Positions 28,489-39,740 of a DNA stretch of 64,000 nucleotides are shown piece by piece. A model generated the notes under the pieces. The model was not told the origin of the DNA. It saw only the letters and a program-made list of their open reading frames with translations, and ran no database searches. A program made the translations under genes and the position numbers. The stretch lies in contig JAHKLY010000002.1 of the NCBI GenBank assembly GCA_020854825.1, positions 112,291 through 176,290 of the forward strand. Direction: 5' to 3'. Each line of letters begins with the position of its first letter. Within the stretch, counting starts at the first letter, position 1. The DNA comes from Candidatus Micrarchaeota archaeon. Lineage in GTDB: Archaea; Micrarchaeota; Micrarchaeia; Anstonellales; JAHKLY01.

Positions 28489-29754
28489 ATGATTGAAGAA
28501 ATATTAAAAAAATTAAAAAAATATAACATAAAAGATTATGAAATATTTAATTCAACTAATAGTATTACTTCTATTGATACAGATAAAACTAATTTCGATA
28601 AAAAAGAATTTGAATATGACGAAGGATATGGATTAAGAATATTAAAAAACAATAAAATAACTTTTACATATTTTTCAGATAAAAATCATATTGAAAGTTC
28701 TATTCAAAATGCATTAAAAATTATAAAAATAAAACCTAAACTCCATAATTTTACATTTAATAATAAAAACCCCAAAATAAAAGTTAAAACATATGATAAA
28801 AAAATAATTGATCTTGATGAAAAAGATATAAAAGAACTAATTAAAGATATGATTCAAAATATTAAATATACTCCAATAAGTTGTTCTGTAATTAAAAATA
28901 TTTCAGAGGTTAGAATAATTAATTCAGAAGGATTAGACTGTTCTCAAAAAGAAACAAGTTTACTTGCTTTCGCTTATTGTTCAAAAGAGGGACAAACAGG
29001 TTCAGAATTTTATGAATCATATAAATATGATAGAAATACTATTTTAAATTTATCAAAAATAGCTTCTAAAAAAGCAAACCAAAAAACAAAACAAATATCT
29101 TCTGTTAAATTACCTGTGATATTGGAAGATGACGCTCTGATTAATATAATTGATAATTTATTTTTAACACAAATAACTGGAGATAAAAAACACCATAACT
29201 CTTCTTATTTAATAGGAAAAGAAAATATGAATATTGCATCTAATAATTTAACTATTTACGAAGACCCCTTTTGTGAAGGTCATTCAAAAACAAACTTTGA
29301 TGGTGAAGGAATAGAAGATGATATTTCTGTATTAATAGATAAAGGAAAATTTACTGGGTTTGTTTATGATAAAGAAACAGCTGCTTTAAGTAAGGTAGAT
29401 AAAAAAGGCTTTTGTTCTAGATCAAATTATACACAATATCCAACTATTGGTTACTCAAATATACTAATCAAACCTGGTAAGACAAAAAATTTAGAAGAAA
29501 TACATAGGGAATATGTTGTTATTAATAATTTGTTTGGATTTCATACTGTTAATACAACAACAGGTGATTTTAGTTTAATAATAGGAAATGGATACCTTGT
29601 AAAGAATAATAAAAAACAATTTATTCAAGGCAATATCTTATCGGGTAACACTTATGCGCTTCTTAAAAATATTCAAGATATTGAAAAATCATTAAAAATG
29701 AAAGGCAGTTATATTGTTCCACGCATTCTAGTAAAAGGTCTAACTATATCTTAA
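28489..29754 (+). CDS. pmbA: PmbA/TldE family protein
   Basis: Paralog of TldD lacking HExxH; FDGEG, HTVN.TTGDFS; directly follows tldD. Confidence 0.88.
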   Translation: MIEEILKKLKKYNIKDYEIFNSTNSITSIDTDKTNFDKKEFEYDEGYGLRILKNNKITFTYFSDKNHIESSIQNALKIIKIKPKLHNFTFNNKNPKIKVKTYDKKIIDLDEKDIKELIKDMIQNIKYTPISCSVIKNISEVRIINSEGLDCSQKETSLLAFAYCSKEGQTGSEFYESYKYDRNTILNLSKIASKKANQKTKQISSVKLPVILEDDALINIIDNLFLTQITGDKKHHNSSYLIGKENMNIASNNLTIYEDPFCEGHSKTNFDGEGIEDDISVLIDKGKFTGFVYDKETAALSKVDKKGFCSRSNYTQYPTIGYSNILIKPGKTKNLEEIHREYVVINNLFGFHTVNTTTGDFSLIIGNGYLVKNNKKQFIQGNILSGNTYALLKNIQDIEKSLKMKGSYIVPRILVKGLTIS

Positions 29755-29838
29755 TATTTAAAAAGGGCTCTATATATTAATTATATACAGTAATGGATAT
29801 TAAATTAACATATTATTTAGTATTAATTTGGTGTGTAA

Positions 29839-31899
29839 ATGGAAGATTATAAATCAACTGAAGAGATTAAAGTTCCTGAGAAATTAATAGATCAAATAAT
29901 AGGGCAAGAAAAAGCTGTTGAAATAGTTAAAAAAGCAGCTAAACAACGAAGAAATGTCCTATTAATAGGTAGTCCAGGAACAGGCAAATCAATGTTAGCA
30001 CAAGCTATGGCAGAATTAATGCCAGCAGAAGATTTAGAAGATGTTTTATGTTATCCAAACAAAGTAGATGAAAATAATCCTAAGATTGTTGTTGTTAAAA
30101 CTTATCCTCCAAAAGAAGAAATAGAAAAAGATCCCAAATTAAAGTCACTTTATCATAATGATTTAATATTAGCTAAAAGTAAAAAAATGCTAAAAGATAT
30201 GGAAAGTAAAGTTAAAACTGAAAAAGATAAGAAAAGGATAGAAGAAGAAAAAAAGAAATTAGAAAAAAAAGAAGATATAGGACAAGGAAGAAAAATTTTA
30301 AATTTAACACAAAGAGTAAGAGGAAGCCCTTCTTCAGATAAAGGTCCAAATCCATTATTAGTCGTTATTTTAATAGCAATAATAGCAATTATTGCCTTGT
30401 ATATGACAAATGCATTACAAGATGATTCTAAATGGTTCATTTTAGCTTTTATTTTCGGATTAGGATTTATGTATTTCTTATTTAGTTTTTCAAGTAGATT
30501 AAGTTTAAGAATGGGTATTGGAGGTTTTGGAACTGATGATCCAAAATTAATAGTTGATAATTCAGGAAAAAGAACAGCACCTTTTGAAGATGCAACAGGA
30601 GCAAAATCAGGAGCTTTATTAGGCGACGTCCGACATGATCCCTTGCAAAGCGGTGGGTTAGGAACTCCTCCACATTTAAGAGTAGAAGCAGGAGCAATAC
30701 ATATGGCAAATAAAGGAGTTTTGTTTATGGATGAAGTTACTTCATTAACAAAACACTTTCAACAGGAATTATTAACTGCAATGCAAGAAAAAAAATATCC
30801 TATTACTGGACAAAGTGAAATGTCTTCAGGAGCAATTGTTAAAACAGAACCTGTCCCATGTGATTTTGTTTTAGTAGCAGCAGGAAATGTTCCAGATATA
30901 CAAACTATGCACCCTGCATTAAGATCAAGAATTCGTGGTGCAGGATATGAAATCTATGTTGAAGATCATATGGATGATACTTTAGAAAATGAAGAAAAAT
31001 TAGTTAAATTTGTAGCACAAGAAGTTAAAAAAGATAAAAAAATACCTCATTTTACAAAAGAAGCTGTAAATGAAGTAATAAATGAAGCAAGAAGAAAAAG
31101 TACTAAAAAACATTCATTTACTTTGAATTTAAGAGAATTAGGAGGAATTGTTCGTGCTGCAGGAGATATGGCAAGAGAAGAAAATGCACAATATGTTTTA
31201 CCTGAACATGTTAAAAAAGCTAAAAAAATATCAGGAACATTAGAACAACAAATAGCTGAACAATATATTGAATTAAAGAAAAGTTACAAAGTTTTTCAAA
31301 CAAAAGGTTATGAGATAGGCCGCGTAAATGGATTAGCTGTTTTAGGAGATCCTTCTTCAGGATTAGTATTACCAATTGTAGCTGAAGTTACGCCCTCATT
31401 TGGAAAAGGAACTGGTAGATTTATTGCTACTGGTAAATTAGGAACTATTGCTAAAGAAGCCGTAGATAATGTTTCTGCAATTATTAAAAAACACGTTAAA
31501 AAAGATATGTCTAAAAAAGATGTTCACATACAATTTTTACAAACTTATGAAGGAGTAGAAGGAGATTCTGCATCTATTGCTGTTGCAGTATCAGTTATAT
31601 CAGCAATGGAATCTATACCTATTGATCAAACAATAGGTATGACTGGTTCATTATCAGTACGTGGAGAAGTACTCCCAGTAGGTGGTATAACAGGCAAAGT
31701 ACAAGCGTGTGTTGAAGCAGGATTAGAAAAAATTATAATACCAAAATCTAATTTTGAAGATGTTTATACATCTAAAGAAGATAAAAAGAAAATACAAATA
31801 ATTCCTGTAGAAAGTATCAGTGATGTTCTAAAACATGTTTTGAAAAAAGGCGCCAAAACAACTAAATTTATCAAAGGAATAAAAAACAATAAGAAATAA
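29839..31899 (+). CDS. lonB: archaeal membrane-anchored Lon protease LonB
   Basis: GSPGTGKS, two TM helices, GDVRHDP.QSGG, HPALRSR, GDSAS (catalytic Ser), GG...K (catalytic Lys). Confidence 0.96.
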
Positions 31900-31902
31900 T
31901 AT

Positions 31903-33114
31903 TTAAAAATGACTTAAAAATATATAAAATGGTAGTTTAAAAACATCTTTATTTTGTATTTCTACCCCTTCAAAAACAATAATTTTTTTCCCTTTAAAAT
32001 CAATTTCTTTAAATTGTTTTAAATCTTTATTTTGCCCACCTATTTCAAATAATGTATTTTTCCATACAAAATCTGGTCCTGTTTTTAAATAATATAATTC
32101 TTCAGTATGCATTGCAAAAAGATCTTCTTTAGATAATCTAATAGCCCTTTCTTTTTCTCCTAATAAATCTAAAAGTACCATCCTTATAACTGGAGAGACA
32201 AATAATACTTTTGGTTCTTTTCTTATTTTTGATTTTCCTTTTTTGTATATTTGTGCTTTATGTATAACACTTGCTTTTTCAAGATAATCAATCATTTTTA
32301 TAATAGTGCCTTTACCCACATTTAGATCATTGGCTAATGCATCATAACTTATTTTTTCTGAAAGAGCTAAAAGTTTTAATAAAGGCCAAAATTTAGATAA
32401 AACTTCCTCATTAAAAGAACTAGTTCCCCCAATATCTTCATAAATTATTCTTTGTAATAAATCTAAAATAGTTGATGTTGGTTTTTCTAATAAATATGGG
32501 ATATTCATTTCTTTATATTCTAAAATTATTTCATTTATATTTTTTAATTTATCCCTTGCATCTAATTCAGTTTTCATTGCTTCGGTAAATAAATCTTTAG
32601 AAAATAAATTAAATTTTCTTATTTTTATATTATGCTTTAGTTCTAAAAATTCATTAAAAGTTAAAGGTTTTAAATTTATGAATACTGCTCTCCTAGCAAG
32701 TGTTCTTCTAGCTTCTTGAAGATTAACAGCAGAAGAACCAGTTACTATTATTCTTATTTTTGGGTACATATCAGAAAATACTTTTAATTCTTTATCCCAA
32801 TTTTTTAATTTAGTAATTTCATCAATAAATAAATAGCCTTCTCTAAAAAAATGTTTTTGTATTGAAATTAAATCTTTTATTGTATATCCTGCCATATTTA
32901 GATGTTCTCCATGAAGTGCTAATCTATCTCCTTTTACTTCTAAATATTTTTGTGCGAGTAATGTTGTTTTTCCCGTTCCTCGTAATCCATATAGTATAAT
33001 AATATTTGATTTGTTTAATTGAGGATATATTTCTCTTTTAAACGGCTGATTTTTATCTTTAAACAATTCTTCTAATAAGTATTTTTCCTCTTTAAAAAAT
33101 TGTATAGTTTCCAT
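31903..33114 (-). CDS. AAA_14 ATPase with winged HTH and DUF4143-like C-terminus
   Basis: GLRGTGKTT, LFIDEI, TGSS, L.PLTF.EFL, HTH-like SYDALANDLNVGKGTIIK.IDYL, PDF...FEIG. Confidence 0.85.
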   Translation of the reverse strand: METIQFFKEEKYLLEELFKDKNQPFKREIYPQLNKSNIIILYGLRGTGKTTLLAQKYLEVKGDRLALHGEHLNMAGYTIKDLISIQKHFFREGYLFIDEITKLKNWDKELKVFSDMYPKIRIIVTGSSAVNLQEARRTLARRAVFINLKPLTFNEFLELKHNIKIRKFNLFSKDLFTEAMKTELDARDKLKNINEIILEYKEMNIPYLLEKPTSTILDLLQRIIYEDIGGTSSFNEEVLSKFWPLLKLLALSEKISYDALANDLNVGKGTIIKMIDYLEKASVIHKAQIYKKGKSKIRKEPKVLFVSPVIRMVLLDLLGEKERAIRLSKEDLFAMHTEELYYLKTGPDFVWKNTLFEIGGQNKDLKQFKEIDFKGKKIIVFEGVEIQNKDVFKLPFYIFLSHF

Positions 33115-33149
33115 ATATTAGTTAATGGTGTGAATGTTTTTAAAGGTTT

Positions 33150-33197
33150 GGTCAAAGTTTTGACCGATTTTGCTTGTTTTCGGTCAATCTTTTGACT
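33150..33197. repeat. two palindromes GGTCAA-N4-TTGACC/T, 32-bp period, next to the AAA_14 promoter
   Basis: GGTCAAAGTTTTGACC (33150-33165) and GGTCAATCTTTTGACT (33182-33197); TATA at 33137-33144 on the minus strand. Confidence 0.8.
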
Positions 33198-33342
33198 AAG
33201 ATAAAATTAATTAGTTATTTTTCCTCTTAATATATCTAAATCAGGACATGCATCTTTACCTTTATTTACTCCTATCCATTTATCTTCACCTTGATCTGCA
33301 TAATAGCATTTCAATCCTCCATTTATTTCTTAATTGTCAGAA

Positions 33343-33636
33343 TTATATTTTTAATATACTTTTAATAATTGTAAAGATTTCTGTCATTTCTTTTTCATCT
33401 ATTTCTTCTTTATATTTTTCAGGTTCAAGTTCTTTTAAAATTGCAAGATAATCACTTTCATATTGGGTTTTTAAGCAATGAAAATATATTGCAGACATAT
33501 ATCCACCAGGCCCATTTATTATCCAATTTTCTAATTTTCTAAGCTGTTGCATATCATGACGCATGTCCCCATCAAAAGGAATCTCTCTAAATAGATTTTT
33601 TAGATATTTAGATTCAAACTTAATTTTATATCTCAT
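33343..33636 (-). CDS. hypothetical protein
   Basis: 97-aa ORF with SD GAGGCG; may be truncated. Confidence 0.5.
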   Translation of the reverse strand: MRYKIKFESKYLKNLFREIPFDGDMRHDMQQLRKLENWIINGPGGYMSAIYFHCLKTQYESDYLAILKELEPEKYKEEIDEKEMTEIFTIIKSILKI

Positions 33637-33720
33637 TTATATCGCCTCACACAAACCTTTATAATTCTCTTTATATAAATATTCTTGAATAAAATATTCT
33701 GATTGGAATATGGTGAATAT

Positions 33721-34260
33721 ATGCTACCTGAACTTAAACAATTAATTATCTCGCTCAAGCAAAAGAGAAAACAGTTAGATTTATCTCAAAATGAACTAGC
33801 CAAAAAATCAGGAGTTTCTCAATCTTTAATAGCCAAACTTGAATCAAACAAAGTAGTGCCAAGCTATAATGCAATTCAAAAAATAGAAAACACATTGGAA
33901 ATGATATTGTATGAAAAAGAAAAGAAAGTCGCTGATATAATGCACTCTCCAATACTTTCTGTTGACGCCGGCGACACTGCTGAAAAGGCAGCAGGGATAA
34001 TGAAAAAGCATGACTACTCGCAGATCCCTGTTAAAAAAAACAGTGAATTTGTAGGAAGCATATCTGAAAGAGAGCTAATCAGTGTAAATAAGAATGTAAA
34101 AACATTGGATATAATGGGGCCATTATTTGATATTGTGAGTTGGGACACACCCATTTCATCTATTAAAGCAATGTTTAAAGATAGAAACAAGAAGGCAATT
34201 CTAATCCGAAATAAAAAAGGAGAAATAAAAGGAATTGTCACTACTCAGGATTTAATTTGA
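33721..34260 (+). CDS. XRE-type HTH plus CBS-pair transcriptional regulator
   Basis: LSQNELAKKSGVSQSLIAKLES..V.PSY followed by two CBS domains (M...DYSQIPV; GIVT..DLI). Confidence 0.92.
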   Translation: MLPELKQLIISLKQKRKQLDLSQNELAKKSGVSQSLIAKLESNKVVPSYNAIQKIENTLEMILYEKEKKVADIMHSPILSVDAGDTAEKAAGIMKKHDYSQIPVKKNSEFVGSISERELISVNKNVKTLDIMGPLFDIVSWDTPISSIKAMFKDRNKKAILIRNKKGEIKGIVTTQDLI

Positions 34261-34265
34261 TAATT

Positions 34266-34349
34266 TTGTTTCCTTTAAGAAACAAGTTATACAGTATTTG
34301 TTTCCTTTAAGAAACAAAAAGAACTTATTTTGTTTCCTTTAGGAAACAA
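34266..34349. repeat. three tandem palindromes TTGTTTCCTTTA(A/G)GAAACAA, 32-bp period, upstream of the second AAA_14 gene
   Basis: Copies at 34266-34285, 34298-34317 and 34330-34349, separated by 12-bp non-identical linkers. Confidence 0.9.
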
Positions 34350-34377
34350 TTAAAAACTTATCGTGTATATATTTATT

Positions 34378-35643
34378 ATGCAATCAATGAAAAATGAAAT
34401 TAAAAAGATAATTTTAGAATTTCAACAAAATGGAATCCCTGACTTTATTTCTAGGGAAACAAAAATCTCCTCATTATTAAAAACAGGTATGGCACTTATT
34501 ATTACTGGTCCCCGTAGAGCGGGAAAATCATATTTAATGTTTCAATTGATGAAAGAAACAAAACTTCCTATGGAACAGATCGTATATATAAATTTTGAAG
34601 ATAATAGATTGGCAGAATTTAATTATAAAAATTTTGAAGATATTATAGATGCATATAAAGAATTATCAGAGTTAAAACCTGTTTTCTTCTTAGATGAAAT
34701 CCATATCATTGATAAATGGTGGCTTTTTATAAGACGTCTTGTAGATCAAAAATATGTTGTTTGTATAACCGGCTCAAATGCAAAATTATTAAGTAAAGAA
34801 TATGCAACACATCTTGCTGGAAGAGGAATTGAACATTTACAATTACCTCTTACATTTACAGAATATTTAAAATTTAAGAAGATTAAAAAACCAGATAAAA
34901 ATATTCTTTTTTCTAATAAAAGATTTGAAATTAATAATTTATTTAAAGATTATTTAATATATGGTGGTTTTCCTTCAGTTGTACTGTCAGAAGAAAACCA
35001 AAAAAAAATACTTAACAGTTATTTTAATACAGTTGTATATAGAGATATTATTACCAGATACAACATAACTGATGAAGGAGCATTTAATATTTTTTTAAAA
35101 AAACTTGCAGAAAATATTGGTAATCCATTTAAATATGCGGGTATTGAAAGACTTATGCATCAGGTAGGATTAGATATAACCCGTAAAACATTGATAAATT
35201 ATTCACAATATGCAAATAATGCATTTTTTATATTCAAATCTATAGATATTCGTTCATCAGTTAAAAGAAGAGAAATGGAAAGAAAAATTTATCTAGTAGA
35301 TAATGGATATCTCCATTTATTCTATTCAGATAATGATTTAGGTAAACCATTAGAAAATGCGGTGGCTATCTGGATTTATAACCATTATAAAGAATTAAAT
35401 TATTTCAGAGAAAATGAAGAAATTGATTTTATTCTTCCAAATGGTATACCTATTCAAGTGTGTTGCGATACAACAAACGAAAGAGAAATAAAGTCTCTAT
35501 TAAAATATATGGAGTATAGTAAGCAAAAAAAAGGATATATAATAACTCTAGATGAAGATAAAATTATTAAAGAAAATAATATTGAGATCCACATACTTCC
35601 AGCATATTATGCATTTCTATATCCTGAAAATATATTAAAATAA
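34378..35643 (+). CDS. AAA_14 ATPase with winged HTH and DUF4143 (PD-(D/E)XK-like) domain
   Basis: GPRRAGKS, YINFED.RL, FLDEI, ITGSNAKLLS.E.AT.L.GR, YGGFP, KIYL.DNG, LEN.V, EIDF..IQVC. Confidence 0.9.
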   Translation: MQSMKNEIKKIILEFQQNGIPDFISRETKISSLLKTGMALIITGPRRAGKSYLMFQLMKETKLPMEQIVYINFEDNRLAEFNYKNFEDIIDAYKELSELKPVFFLDEIHIIDKWWLFIRRLVDQKYVVCITGSNAKLLSKEYATHLAGRGIEHLQLPLTFTEYLKFKKIKKPDKNILFSNKRFEINNLFKDYLIYGGFPSVVLSEENQKKILNSYFNTVVYRDIITRYNITDEGAFNIFLKKLAENIGNPFKYAGIERLMHQVGLDITRKTLINYSQYANNAFFIFKSIDIRSSVKRREMERKIYLVDNGYLHLFYSDNDLGKPLENAVAIWIYNHYKELNYFRENEEIDFILPNGIPIQVCCDTTNEREIKSLLKYMEYSKQKKGYIITLDEDKIIKENNIEIHILPAYYAFLYPENILK

Positions 35644-35717
35644 TTATGCAATCAAATACAATTGAACCTTTCACTAAAAATAGGTTTAGTTAACTTTCAT
35701 TAATTTAAATTAAACAT

Positions 35718-35741
35718 AGTTTCCTTTTTGAGAAAGAAACT
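35718..35741. terminator. imperfect hairpin between convergent genes, probable terminator
   Basis: AGTTTCCTTTTTGAGAAAGAAACT; shares GTTTCCTTT...AGAAAC with the 34266 array. Confidence 0.35.
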
Positions 35742-35791
35742 TTTAATAAATAATCTCCTTTTAAAAAACTTCGATATTAAATATAAATAAA

Positions 35792-38700
35792 TTAATCTTC
35801 GTGTTTTGGGCAGTAAAATTTATACCCGCAATTTCTACAAGGCCAATCATCTATAGTAGGTGTAAACGTATGTTCATAATCGTTAACTATATTTTTAGCG
35901 CAATCAATTAGCGCAGTTCTAATGTCATTAATATTAAATCCGTTAGTTGCGCCTTCAAATGATACTTCTCCATTATCATCTATAATCCCAGTAATTGGTT
36001 TATCAAGTCCAAGCATTTCTAATGTAATTTTCTTAGGTTTATATCCCATTTCAGTTAAAGCAACTGCATAAAATCCTAACTGCCATGCACGTTGTGTAGA
36101 AGTAGGTGCAACGCCTGTTTTATAATCAACTATTTCAACCTCTTTTTTATCTAAATTTAAAAAATCTATTCTATCTGCTTTTCCATAAAATCTGAAACCT
36201 TCTAATTCAAATGAGAGTTCAACTTCAACTTTAGAATTCTCGTCATATTTATCTTTATTTCTTTCCCAAAAAATTGTTAACATATCTTTAACTTCATTTA
36301 TATCAATTTCTTTCCAATTTGGCTCTTTACTCATATCTTCGGCAATACTAAAAAACTCTTCTTTAGTTCTTACATTTCTATCAACACCTTTTTCAAGAAC
36401 TTCATGCACAAAAGAACCTACTGATGCTCTATTAAAATCAAATCCTCCTCTTTCAGGCATATGAAATAACTTACTAAATTCATATTTTTTAGGACATTCT
36501 AAATATGTCATTGTAGCTGTAGGACTAAACGTAAATGAAGAAGGAGTAAATTTAAGTCCTGAAGAACAGGTTTCACACATTTTAAGCTGTTCTTTCATCT
36601 CATCTTTATCAATTAATGTATTTAAATCAACTGATAAATCAATTATTCTGCCTTCTCTCATTGTATAATAATTCGCAAGTCTAGACATTAATGAATCTAA
36701 ATTCTCACTATCTAATGCTTTAATAAATTGGTCTTTTAATTTATATTTAAACTGTTCGTATTCAGACACTGGAGCTAAGAAAGTATATCTTTCTTCTTCA
36801 TCAACAGTAAATTCAATATCATTATTTTCCAAATAATTCATTTCATCTAAAAATATAGATTGTTGTGTTGAGTCTTCATCATTATTATAAGATCTAGCAT
36901 ATGTTAAAACTAATTCTTCTTTAGTTCTTGTTAATGCAACATAACATAATCTTCTTTCTTCTAATAATAAACTATCTTTTTCATATTCTTTAATAGCTTT
37001 TTCAATATCAACATCTCCTAATGTATTAATATATTCTTTAATTGCTGGATTAAGAACTTTAGGTATTAAAGGTTCTTTATATGTTCTTTCAACAGGAAAT
37101 CTTTTGTATGCAAGATTAGTAAAAATTACTTTCTTAAATTGTAAACCCTTAGTTGCGTGAATAGTCATTAATCTAACTGCATCAATATCCTTAACTTTTG
37201 ATGCAGGAATACTAACATTTAACTTATCTAAAATTTCAATATAATGTATAAAAGAACTTAATTTTTTAGAATGTGTGTTATAATAATTCTCGGCTATATC
37301 ATAAAACTGTTTAAGATTCATTAATGCTTCAGTATTTTTAATATTTCTTTCATGTGAAAAAGCACGGCTTAATCCTGTAAATTCATATATATCTAAAATA
37401 ATTTCTGGAAAAGGTTTATCTGATGAATCATTAACTTTTTGTAATCCATCAACAACTCGTTTAACAATTTTTTTACCTTCCTCAGATAACTCAAGATTAG
37501 TTAAATTATAGAGCATTGTATAATCTACAGATTCATCTCTTTTTTTCTTCAAATACCTCCCTATTTTTATACTATCTTTAGGAGATAAATTATTTTTTTT
37601 AGTAAATAAACTCCACCATGACTGTTCTCCAGTACCTGTTCGTTCAATTAAATTATTAAGTATTGATAAATAAGCAACAACTGTTTTTATTTCAGATTTT
37701 TCCATCATATCTGTTTGTCCTACTGAGACAAACAAAATATTTCTTGCTTCTAATGCTTTTTTCATAAGCTTTGCTTGTTTGTGTGTTCTGCATAATACAC
37801 AAATTTCTTTTAATGGAGTTCCTTTTTTAATTTCTTCTTCTACTAATTCTGCAACCTTACATGCTTCTTCATCTTTATTTTTTAATTCAATTACTTTTAC
37901 TTTTTCTCCTTCTTTTTCTTGAGCGTTTTCAATTAAAAAACAAGTATCTGTATCATCAAAATTATTTTTAATTAATGTATGTGCTGTCCTAAGAACAGTA
38001 TTGGGAGATCTATGACTTTTATTTAATTTAAAAATATTAGTTGTTTCTAAATTAAATTCTTGTTTAAAATGTTTAAAATTATCCATATATGCTCCTCTAA
38101 ATGCATATATAGATTGATTAGGATCACCAACAACTGTTATATTCCCATGATCTTTTGCTAAAAAAGAAATTAATTCAAATTGAAGTTTATTTGTATCTTG
38201 AAATTCATCAATTAGAATATATTTATATTTTTTTGCGACTTCTTCAGCACCAAAAGTTCTAAATAATGAAACAACATTTGAATTAAGATCAGAATAATCC
38301 AAATAATTTTTTTCTTTTTTCATATCTACATATCTTTTCCAAGCAGAAACAAAATTTGAATATTTTTCATATTCATTATAATTATCTAAATATTTTTTTA
38401 TCTCTCGTTTTCTATCTCTTAATATTTTTCTCTGTTCTTTTGTATCTGAAGGTTCTAGGTGAAGTAATTTTATTTCAACATTAAGTTCTCTAATATATTC
38501 TTCTAAATTTCCTATGTCTTTGAACTCCTTACCAATTTCTTCAGTATACTTTTCTATATCTTCTAAAGAAATACCAAAATCTTTTGCTGTTGAAATTGAA
38601 GATTCATATAAATCTGCATTATATGCAGATACATCTAAATCTTTATGTAAAAATACTTTTGCGTCATCAGGTAATAGAATCTCAAAACCTGAATTTATCC

Positions 38701-39004
38701 CTATTTTATCCCCAAATTCTTTAAGAACATCTGCTGAAAATCCATGAAAGGTTCTAATAGTAATATTTGTTCTTTGTTTTAATTCTTTTTCAACTTCTTC
38801 TTTTAGATTATTTGTAGCTTCATTTGAAAATGTAAGACATAAAATTTCAGATGGATCATAAATATTATTTTTAATCAAATGTGCTATTTTTTTAGTTAAA
38901 GTAAAGGTTTTTCCTGTTCCTGGACCTGCAATTATTAAACAAGGTCCTTTTGTTTCTTCAACAGCTTTTTTTTGTTCAACATTTAACTCTTTTTTAATAT
39001 CCAT
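35792..39004 (-). CDS. UvrD/PcrA-family helicase fused to a PD-(D/E)XK (AddB/Cas4-like) nuclease
   Basis: AGPGTGKT, TFH, DEFQD, VGDPNQSIYAFRGA, MTIHATKGLQF, EERRL.YVALTR; nuclease part C-PKKY, ADRID, VDYKTG, QL.FY, CxxCxxxxxC. Confidence 0.93.
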   Translation of the reverse strand: MDIKKELNVEQKKAVEETKGPCLIIAGPGTGKTFTLTKKIAHLIKNNIYDPSEILCLTFSNEATNNLKEEVEKELKQRTNITIRTFHGFSADVLKEFGDKIGINSGFEILLPDDAKVFLHKDLDVSAYNADLYESSISTAKDFGISLEDIEKYTEEIGKEFKDIGNLEEYIRELNVEIKLLHLEPSDTKEQRKILRDRKREIKKYLDNYNEYEKYSNFVSAWKRYVDMKKEKNYLDYSDLNSNVVSLFRTFGAEEVAKKYKYILIDEFQDTNKLQFELISFLAKDHGNITVVGDPNQSIYAFRGAYMDNFKHFKQEFNLETTNIFKLNKSHRSPNTVLRTAHTLIKNNFDDTDTCFLIENAQEKEGEKVKVIELKNKDEEACKVAELVEEEIKKGTPLKEICVLCRTHKQAKLMKKALEARNILFVSVGQTDMMEKSEIKTVVAYLSILNNLIERTGTGEQSWWSLFTKKNNLSPKDSIKIGRYLKKKRDESVDYTMLYNLTNLELSEEGKKIVKRVVDGLQKVNDSSDKPFPEIILDIYEFTGLSRAFSHERNIKNTEALMNLKQFYDIAENYYNTHSKKLSSFIHYIEILDKLNVSIPASKVKDIDAVRLMTIHATKGLQFKKVIFTNLAYKRFPVERTYKEPLIPKVLNPAIKEYINTLGDVDIEKAIKEYEKDSLLLEERRLCYVALTRTKEELVLTYARSYNNDEDSTQQSIFLDEMNYLENNDIEFTVDEEERYTFLAPVSEYEQFKYKLKDQFIKALDSENLDSLMSRLANYYTMREGRIIDLSVDLNTLIDKDEMKEQLKMCETCSSGLKFTPSSFTFSPTATMTYLECPKKYEFSKLFHMPERGGFDFNRASVGSFVHEVLEKGVDRNVRTKEEFFSIAEDMSKEPNWKEIDINEVKDMLTIFWERNKDKYDENSKVEVELSFELEGFRFYGKADRIDFLNLDKKEVEIVDYKTGVAPTSTQRAWQLGFYAVALTEMGYKPKKITLEMLGLDKPITGIIDDNGEVSFEGATNGFNINDIRTALIDCAKNIVNDYEHTFTPTIDDWPCRNCGYKFYCPKHED

Positions 39005-39066
39005 AATATAAATATATTTAATATGTTTTTAAACCCTTCTTAAGAGTACATTTCCGGATGAGATAA

Positions 39067-39740
39067 TTAATTACTCCAAGTATCTGAAATTTCATCATAT
39101 CCCATACTAAAATAATTTTCTCCTTCATCTAAATTTACATAACAATGTAAAAGCTTCTTACCATCCATCATATGAGTATACTGATTATGTTGTGACATTT
39201 CTCCTGTATCTTTACAAACATTTGTTTCTAACATAAATGATACATGGTCTCTGTTATCATAATGCTGTTTTAATGTATTATAATAATTAAAAGCTAAATT
39301 TCCATCTGTTGTTCTTAAAGTTAACTTATACATATAATCTTCCCAGGTTTTACTTGATGGATTAACAAAACTTAAGGTAGGCAAATTACATCAAAATAAT
39401 GTTTTCCTTCATCTACATTTTGAGTTAAATATAAATATTTTACATTTGCATTTGAGGTCCAAAAACTTGCTTTAAAATCAGTTCTTGCTAATGCCACTTC
39501 TTGTTCATTCATTATTGAATCCTCCATGGGTGGAATTCCTTCTTCAAATATCTCTTCATGAAATTCTTCATTCATTTCCTCTTCAAAAATTTCTTCATCA
39601 GATTCAGCATAAATCATATCTTCTGGATATATTTCTTCTAATACATCATAATAACTAAATAATTCTGAAAATACAAACGAAGAAAATATAAATAATATTA
39701 AAATCATAATAAAACTGATATAAATCTTATTTAAATTCAT
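39067..39740 (-). pseudogene. frameshifted exported protein gene (ORFs 39372-39740 and 39067-39384)
   Basis: Overlapping ORFs; adding one T in ATTTG near 39385 gives continuous ...HYFDVILPTLSFVNP...; signal peptide and acidic repeat at the N-terminus. Confidence 0.5.

Follow-up and report, generated by a model that had tools for sequence, protein, structure and literature searches.

The PDC-S01 family (COG1373) pairs an ATPase with a PD-(D/E)XK-like domain and, according to the accessible parts of a survey of 7,747 archaeal genomes, is very abundant, enriched in archaea and, as AAA_14-DUF4143, the fourth most common prokaryotic 'defence' gene, with about 40,000 public loci (PMC12988326). A table in PMC3424549 lists DUF4143 among the PD-(D/E)XK families whose function is unknown, and an extract of a further study describes one PDC-S01 representative, challenged in E. 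coli with T7, T5 and T4, that was not among the four of eight candidates that protected (10.1101/2024.09.26.614923). Two other proteins are known for binding regularly spaced palindromes. As excerpted, Ss-LrpB of Sulfolobus solfataricus recognizes three regularly spaced palindromic boxes in its own control region, with a dimer on each, cooperative binding and about 100 bp of DNA wrapped (PMC1802622), while dimers of NtrC, an AAA+ protein with a helix-turn-helix (HTH), occupy two palindromes whose centres are separated by 32 bp (-140 and -108, at glnAp2), from where a hexamer is nucleated (PMC5159524). Here we analyse a 64,000-nt stretch of a Candidatus Micrarchaeota genome (contig JAHKLY010000002.1; the whole stretch is called the window), which holds two PDC-S01 genes on opposite strands, each with an array of palindromes at its promoter. 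We put at roughly 60% the probability that the product of each gene binds cooperatively to its cognate array, whose helically phased sites would thus serve as operators for autoregulation.

The source genome (G000; 828 kb, 28% G+C, seven contigs, 97.6% complete) carries six strong AAA_14 paralogs, labelled A to F, of which B and F are the plus- and minus-strand genes of the window. AAA_14 was matched at E=9e-34 (116.8 bits) in B and E=2e-23 (83 bits) in F, against a Pfam cut-off of 27. DUF4143 scored above its cut-off of 28.1 in B (E=2e-14, 53.8 bits) and slightly below it in F (26.9 bits), which nonetheless aligns full-length with family members. The proteins are 23% identical, in keeping with an earlier note on this DNA that had read them as two distantly related AAA_14/DUF4143-type genes. 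The same note had placed palindrome arrays with unrelated motifs and a common 32-bp period upstream of both, and our coordinates agree: GGTCAA-N4-TTGAC(C/T) begins at 33150 and 33182 before F, and TTGTTTCCTTTARGAAACAA begins at 34266, 34298 and 34330 before B (unit pattern TTGTTTCC-TTTA-(A/G)GAAACAA), with start-to-start distances of exactly 32 in each array. Such sites are rare by chance. Compared with 100 dinucleotide-preserving shuffles of the window, the F pattern (at most one mismatch) gave 4 strand-matches where 0.52 were expected, a count reached by 2 of 100 shuffles, and the B pattern (at most three mismatches) gave 6 where 0.71 were expected, a count reached by none. Across the whole 828-kb genome, the F palindrome (at most two mismatches) and the B palindrome (at most three) were each found only at their own gene. 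The TATA-like boxes, about 25 nt before each ATG, suggest that B and F are transcribed as leaderless messages.

This arrangement recurs at the other paralogs, all six of which match PADLOC PDC-S01 models (E from 1.5e-105 to 5e-29) and which are pairwise 21-36% identical. Three sites at a period of 32 precede B and two precede F; C (C3:190724-191995) has two adjoining 32-nt palindromic units, E has four copies of TTGTTCGTTCAAAAGAACAA spaced 32, 50 and 32, D has four related copies spaced 31, 50 and 31, and A has a single long palindrome, ATCGTCAAAG-N11-CTTGACGAT. Overall, a 31-32 bp period lies beside a TATA-like box in five of the six paralogs, with a different motif each time and A, with its one long palindrome, as the exception; the motifs of D and E, the closest pair, are related. 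A genome-wide scan for palindromic direct repeats (offsets 15-60) returned 11 matches, and all five of those at offset 32 lay upstream of family genes. The family gene itself is the only thing that varies in step with each array.

We then surveyed homologs from the phylum of the window, plus five from bacterial plasmids. A family match was present in 172 of 301 sampled genomes of the phylum, a tally that counts two unpublished genomes (G205 and G060) from which no sequence was used, and copy number ranged from 0 to 41 per ~1-Mb genome across 41 relatives, the maximum of 41 matches coming from one genome (G017) of ~1 Mb. Periodicity was measured as the offset, between 12 and 70, with the best 20-nt self-match in the 200 nt upstream of the start. 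The earlier note had proposed checking homologs for a conserved 31-33 bp period, and this was indeed the best offset in 44 of 98 distinct homolog upstream regions (31: 4, 32: 20, 33: 20) and in 15 of 39 from a separately fetched second set, as against 42 of 666 for other G000 open reading frames (ORFs) of at least 150 aa and 20 of 166 for other ORFs of the same loci. Fisher's test of the 44 of 98 against these two controls gave p=5e-21 and p=5e-9, respectively, values that overstate the significance because relatives are not independent. In 18 of the 44 arrays the centre of the proximal site fell at -35 to -58, directly against the TATA box, and in 14 it fell at -8 to -19; in these 14, the TATA box lies between two palindromes, the second of which extends over the start (L013, L042 and L100 are clear examples). 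Units were palindromic (at least seven pairs) in 17 of 44 arrays, compared with 14% of random 26-mers. At one locus (L133, G030:C26:23500-35461), four family genes lie in tandem with gaps of 45-115 nt, each with its own short array. The same locus has a divergent pair of family genes that share one short gap.

The protein has a plausible reader for such sites. Given an alignment of 59 sequences, AlphaFold2 modelled B (predicted local distance difference test score, 94.4) as an AAA+ core, a lid, a winged helix and a C-terminal alpha/beta domain. The best Foldseek matches were the archaeal ATPases SSO1545 (2fna) and PAB2304 (2qen), with query-normalized template modelling scores of 0.43-0.44, followed by the Orc1/Cdc6-DNA complexes 2qby_A (E=8e-7), 2v1u_A and 1fnn_A, and by CED-4/Apaf-1. 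The modelled fold of B is thus AAA+, lid and winged helix, as in SSO1545, Orc1/Cdc6 and STAND proteins; in F, HTH_36/HTH_11 matches at residues 246-291 are weak. None of the 59 sequences departs from the others at Walker A, Walker B, S133 or R149, as would fit an ATPase acting in oligomeric form. The C-terminal domain had been described in the earlier note as carrying a PD-(D/E)XK-like motif. In it, E326 and D350 are invariant in 59 of 59, but no more than 8 of the 59 have the canonical lysine of (D/E)xK. The first position of the third nuclease motif is Q in 38, E in 15 and N in 5, and its third position is C in 21, T in 11, S in 10, K in 8 and G in 6 (B reads Q-V-C and F reads E-I-G).

The predicted recognition helix (B residues 268-281) is conserved at buried positions and hypervariable at exposed positions 269, 270, 273, 274 and 277. 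It reads TRKTLINY in B and GKGTIIKM in F, so the predicted helices of the two genes do differ, as the earlier note had stated. Across homologs, helix KSSTS.. goes with half-site TTCTTT, SK[DN]xLY with TTTCC, SY[KD].. with TGTTAC and ..TIERF with ATCGTCAA. The most telling case spans distant lineages: L042 and L100, which are 32-34% identical to B, have [RK]269-K270 in common with it, and the TGTTTCC-N4-GGAAACA palindrome of B occurs twice, 33 bp apart, at both loci. In L040 (46%) and L037 (41%), which are more closely related to B, helix residues and motifs both differ. L045, 52% identical to L042, has RQ instead of KK and a different half-site, in the palindrome ATGTCTT-N6-AAGACAT. A partial Mantel test of helix against half-site over 27 sequences gave r=0.30 (p=0.0005), a positive result for the co-variation of motif and helix that the earlier note had proposed to check, with a limit discussed below.

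From these features we propose the following mechanism. Each PDC-S01 gene would have its own cis operator array on its promoter, made of two to four palindromes of paralog-specific sequence, and dimers of the gene's own product would read the half-sites through the recognition helix of the winged helix. Site centres 31-33 bp apart are separated by about three helical turns and so would present their dimers on one face of the DNA, where neighbouring dimers could touch through their AAA+ modules; this phasing would allow a cooperative, possibly ATP-dependent assembly. Since the palindromes lie directly against the TATA box and start site, or on either side of them, occupancy would be expected to throttle the gene's own transcription, that is, to act as negative autoregulation. 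Three palindromes amount to six half-sites, which might, speculatively, fit an AAA+ hexamer. We infer the identity of the binder, the stoichiometry of dimers and oligomers, the sign of the regulatory effect and what part, if any, the protein plays in DNA cleavage or defence.

Comparison with a congeneric genome (G001) shows that gene and array also travel together. Gene C lies between two copies of an 82-nt direct repeat, the repeat being the 2x32 array in its entirety and its downstream copy overlapping the C stop codon; the syntenic locus in G001 has an unrelated 249-aa ORF and no array. The segment varying between the two genomes at C is almost exactly array-gene-array. Gene A, which lies within a segment absent from G001, is flanked by a repeat of ~95 nt (75% identical) that contains the A palindrome. 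F and its array are 92% identical in G001, amid flanking LonB and UvrD genes that are 81-82% identical, and synteny is broken at both ends of the block. The array of the G001 ortholog of F is of the form 2+2 (spacing 32, 50, 32), and between the two genomes the GTCAA/TTGAC arms are kept and the centres vary. Between uvrD and its neighbour, G001 has a 1.3-kb insertion composed of a family gene and a 33-bp-period array where G000 has 9 nt and no array. This cassette sits at the 5' end of uvrD and gene B at the other end in G000, so both flanks of uvrD host family cassettes. More broadly, significant upstream/downstream direct repeats occurred at 20 of 93 homolog loci; at about nine of these, judged by eye, the repeat is the array and promoter, and the rest look like host sequence outside the array. 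No flanking repeat was found at B, D, E or F, and the alignment of the upstream and downstream regions of B was not significant. Together, these results support the view that gene and array form one self-contained cassette, whose gain, loss and duplication involve both parts at once, and the suggestion in the earlier note of a single module agrees with both the family-wide arrays and this gain and loss between congeneric genomes.

Several observations weigh against the autoregulatory operator reading. By our measure, a 31-33 bp period was not seen in 54 of the 98 homologs, and it was the best period in none of the five bacterial plasmid homologs examined (of 231 records with a match), a small sample in which one had a 7-bp tandem repeat and two or three had single or paired promoter palindromes. 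Two other 32-bp palindrome arrays in G000 (C3:145790-145845 and C3:11455-11570) have no adjoining family gene, which implies that other proteins share this geometry or that arrays outlive their genes. A solo B-type array with three sites (spacing 32 and 31) and conserved half-sites is present in G001 (L072:1500-1590, G001:C14), a genome in which a search for an ortholog of B gave 38% identity at best and so none was found. The array has a Fic+HTH_17 gene on one side and an unrelated 245-aa gene on the other, and is upstream of the latter, which has no Pfam match, is unrelated to the family and was not found in G000. A script comparing this array with that of B without register correction found identity at 33 of 42 positions in the arms and at 20 of 50 outside them; once the third unit is shifted by 1 nt, ~40 of the 42 positions in the arms agree by eye. 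The claim that the arrays stand directly against a transcription factor B recognition element (BRE) and TATA box holds insofar as A/T-rich boxes lie near both, but the TATA and BRE assignments were made by eye. Finally, the partial Mantel set showed no helix/half-site trend among pairs below 40% identity, so that the co-variation is suggestive and not statistically separable from shared ancestry.

The cassette behaviour raises another reading, in which the arrays, besides being operators or in place of that, would be where a one-gene selfish cassette recombines or attaches: its protein would assemble on the phased sites, and the nuclease-like domain would help to duplicate, insert or excise the unit. 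The array-gene-array structure of C, the palindrome-bearing repeat around A, the repeat-flanked homologs (about nine with the array inside), the 1.3-kb insertion in G001, the conserved F block between its two breakpoints, the solo array, and the swings in copy number with tandem clusters all fit this view. On the other hand, four of the six paralogs lack a flanking repeat, the empty site in G000 has neither an array nor a visible target duplication, most members lack the catalytic lysine, the paralogs within the genome are old and show no recent burst, and ordinary recombination could also yield flanking repeats. Contigs of four DNA runs compared with positions 29500-39500 gave no convincing alternative junction, the joints listed having sides of 20-33 nt and possibly deriving from other organisms; they contained no circular or excised form either, which is uninformative. 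We regard this reading as possible but unlikely, and hold a shade more doubtful its stronger form, in which the arrays go beyond operators to serve as assembly and recognition sites of a minimal recombinase-less selfish cassette, whose ATPase would oligomerize on its own array and use its atypical PD-(D/E)XK-like domain to duplicate, insert or excise array and gene. If true, it would explain the array-gene-array units, 2+2 arrays, solo arrays, precise insertions and deletions and 0-41-fold copy swings, and the family's top ranking as a defence candidate would partly reflect its own mobility into variable islands. Of the options in the earlier note, the selfish-element one thus gains some favour from the flanking direct repeats and the initiator-like one loses it.

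The remaining explanations concern who, or what, uses the palindromes. They could be operators of another regulator, with the ATPase not binding at all, and for B a candidate adjoins: the array begins 6 nt past the stop codon of an HTH_3+CBS gene, and XRE-type HTH proteins commonly bind palindromes as dimers. The two promoters with the same 32-bp geometry and no family gene point the same way. However, such a neighbour stands beside only one of the six arrays, G001 has the B-type array but no ortholog of the HTH-CBS gene (best match E=2e-5, in the CBS part only), a different motif per paralog would need a different unlinked regulator each time, and the 44 of 98 association is family-wide. We consequently give little credence to another regulator or to the HTH-CBS neighbour, which had been named in the earlier note as a possible actual binder. 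Less probable still is an initiator-like module, in which an Orc1/Cdc6-type protein with origin recognition box (ORB)- or iteron-like repeats would mark a chromosomal or integrated-element origin. The repeats do adjoin the gene, Orc1/Cdc6-DNA complexes (2qby, 2v1u, 1fnn) are among the best structural matches, and the B half-site loosely resembles the mini-ORB dyad; but every paralog has a different motif, which confines the TTCC/GGAA likeness to a single specificity class. The family has six copies in this 0.83-Mb genome and as many as 41 in a relative. Its sites are symmetric palindromes placed on the promoter of their own gene, and no AT-rich unwinding element separates inverted sites. The B model is nearest in structure to the uncharacterized SSO1545 and PAB2304 ATPases rather than to Orc1, and no Cdc6 Pfam family scored above cut-off (F reached 18.4 bits for ORC-CDC6-like against a cut-off of 27, and B had no match). 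The mini-ORB reading in the earlier note is therefore disfavoured by copy number, promoter position, site symmetry and motif diversity. We would be similarly surprised if the palindromes were RNA hairpins of a leader or terminator instead of DNA sites. Every unit can fold, and at some loci a copy lies past the stop codon of the gene; yet the B and F arrays are upstream of the TATA-like box and so are probably not transcribed with the gene, no Rfam family exceeded threshold in 32900-34600, and a strict three-turn centre-to-centre period with free spacer sequence is a property of a DNA face and not of RNA folding.

Table 1. Coordinates of the two PDC-S01 genes of the window and their promoter elements (position 1 is the first letter of the window).
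Feature	Position	Strand	Basis or remark
Gene F: AAA_14 ATPase, winged HTH and DUF4143-like C-terminal domain, 403 aa	31903..33114	-	Pfam; PADLOC PDC-S01 E=2e-30
TATA-like box of F, CTTTAAAAAC on gene strand, ~25 nt 5' of ATG	33136..33145	-	read by eye
F operator palindrome 1 (promoter-proximal, putative), GGTCAA-AGTT-TTGACC	33150..33165	.	arms kept in all four copies of the G001 ortholog array
F operator palindrome 2 (putative), GGTCAA-TCTT-TTGACT, 32 bp from palindrome 1	33182..33197	.	sequence
B operator palindrome 1 (putative), TTGTTTCC-TTTA-AGAAACAA	34266..34285	.	sequence
B operator palindrome 2 (putative), 32 bp from palindrome 1	34298..34317	.	sequence
B operator palindrome 3 (promoter-proximal, putative), 32 bp from palindrome 2	34330..34349	.	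sequence
TATA-like box of B, TTAAAAAC, abuts palindrome 3, ~25 nt 5' of ATG	34350..34357	+	read by eye
Gene B: AAA_14 ATPase, winged HTH and DUF4143, 421 aa	34378..35643	+	Pfam; PADLOC PDC-S01 E=7e-91; ATG at 34378
Degenerate B-like palindrome, AGTTTCC...GAAACT with longer centre, ~75 nt past the gene B stop	35718..35741	.	read by eye

The degenerate palindrome beyond gene B (Table 1) may be a decayed downstream copy of the site or a chance hairpin. Between F and B lie two small ORFs and the HTH_3+CBS gene (33703-34260). On the minus strand from the F array to the HTH-CBS gene (33203-33636) are a 97-aa frame without a Pfam or PADLOC match and a possible 38-aa, Cys-containing frame; within this region, an 85-nt segment (33320-33404) is 85% identical to an unlinked site in G001. 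Convergent with gene B is a UvrD-helicase/PDDEXK_1 (AddA-like) gene of 1070 aa (35792-39004, minus strand). The window also encodes an archaeal-type LonB and carries an archaeal signal recognition particle RNA at 155-418 on the plus strand (Rfam RF01857, 98.7 bits), both of which mark the source as an archaeon.

Elsewhere in G000, the array at C3:145790-145845 consists of two copies of ATCGTTTTTTCACAGAACGAT, 32 bp apart, in the divergent promoter region of a phosphotransacetylase-like gene and a 266-aa gene, with no AAA_14 gene nearby; it could be a solo array or belong to another regulator with the same geometry. In the array at C3:11455-11570, AATTGGTCG-N6-CGACTAATT occurs three times, at spacings of 63 and 32, within the 330-nt gap that precedes a ScpA-like gene, and its outer GGTC...GACC is similar to the F palindrome. 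At C7:29685-29717, ATGTTTACAAACAT palindromes with a 15-bp period are found at the 5' end of a distant 'archaeal ATPase'-type gene (425-aa frame, weak AAA_14 match).

Paralog-specific phased promoter sites suggest a concrete activity for this family, namely predicted sequence-specific, cooperative DNA binding by the winged HTH. They would also offer a natural specificity code, relating helix positions 269, 270, 273 and 274 to half-sites, and the arrays would be ready substrates for biochemistry. For annotation, tight self-repression would account for heterologous tests that fail. The behaviour of these cassettes is also relevant to the spread of single-gene 'defence' genes among ultra-small archaea in the absence of recognizable recombinases, with arrays that also serve cassette mobility as the more radical possibility.

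With Orc1/Cdc6 and ORB, gene B has in common the AAA+, lid and winged-helix fold and the gene-adjacent repeats; unlike them, the family has many copies, symmetric dimer-type sites on promoters, no unwinding element and an extra C-terminal nuclease-like domain. Plasmid iterons are helically phased repeats beside the gene of the Rep protein that reads them and autoregulates, but they are direct, asymmetric repeats within a replicon, whereas the units here are palindromes with no replicon context and the protein fold is unrelated. SSO1545 and PAB2304, to which the B model is structurally most similar, fall in a different Pfam family, have entry titles without a function and, as far as alignment lengths show, lack DUF4143. 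NtrC-type enhancer sites have the same 32-bp geometry as the family arrays, and nucleation of an oligomer would be an analogy here. Neither B nor F has a Sigma54_activat domain by Pfam, and archaea, to our knowledge, have no sigma-54; NtrC acts remotely as an activator, whereas the family sites lie on the promoter, suggesting repression. All six G000 paralogs match PDC-S01 models and have the ATPase and PD-(D/E)XK-like architecture of that family, whose literature, in the parts available on DUF4143, PDC-S01 and COG1373, consists of classification and prevalence statements, gives no account of cis arrays such as these, of DNA-sequence specificity, of autoregulation or of cassette behaviour, and leaves a defence role unproven. 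Ss-LrpB has the same cis-architecture as the B array, with several regular palindromes in its own control region. It is a single-copy Lrp/AsnC regulator with HTH and RAM domains and no ATPase or nuclease-like domain, whereas B and F are AAA+/winged-HTH proteins by Pfam and fold search and belong to an expanded, mobile family with a new motif per paralog. The arrays are probably a variant of phased autoregulatory operators, undescribed in the literature searched, on one of the most abundant uncharacterized gene families.

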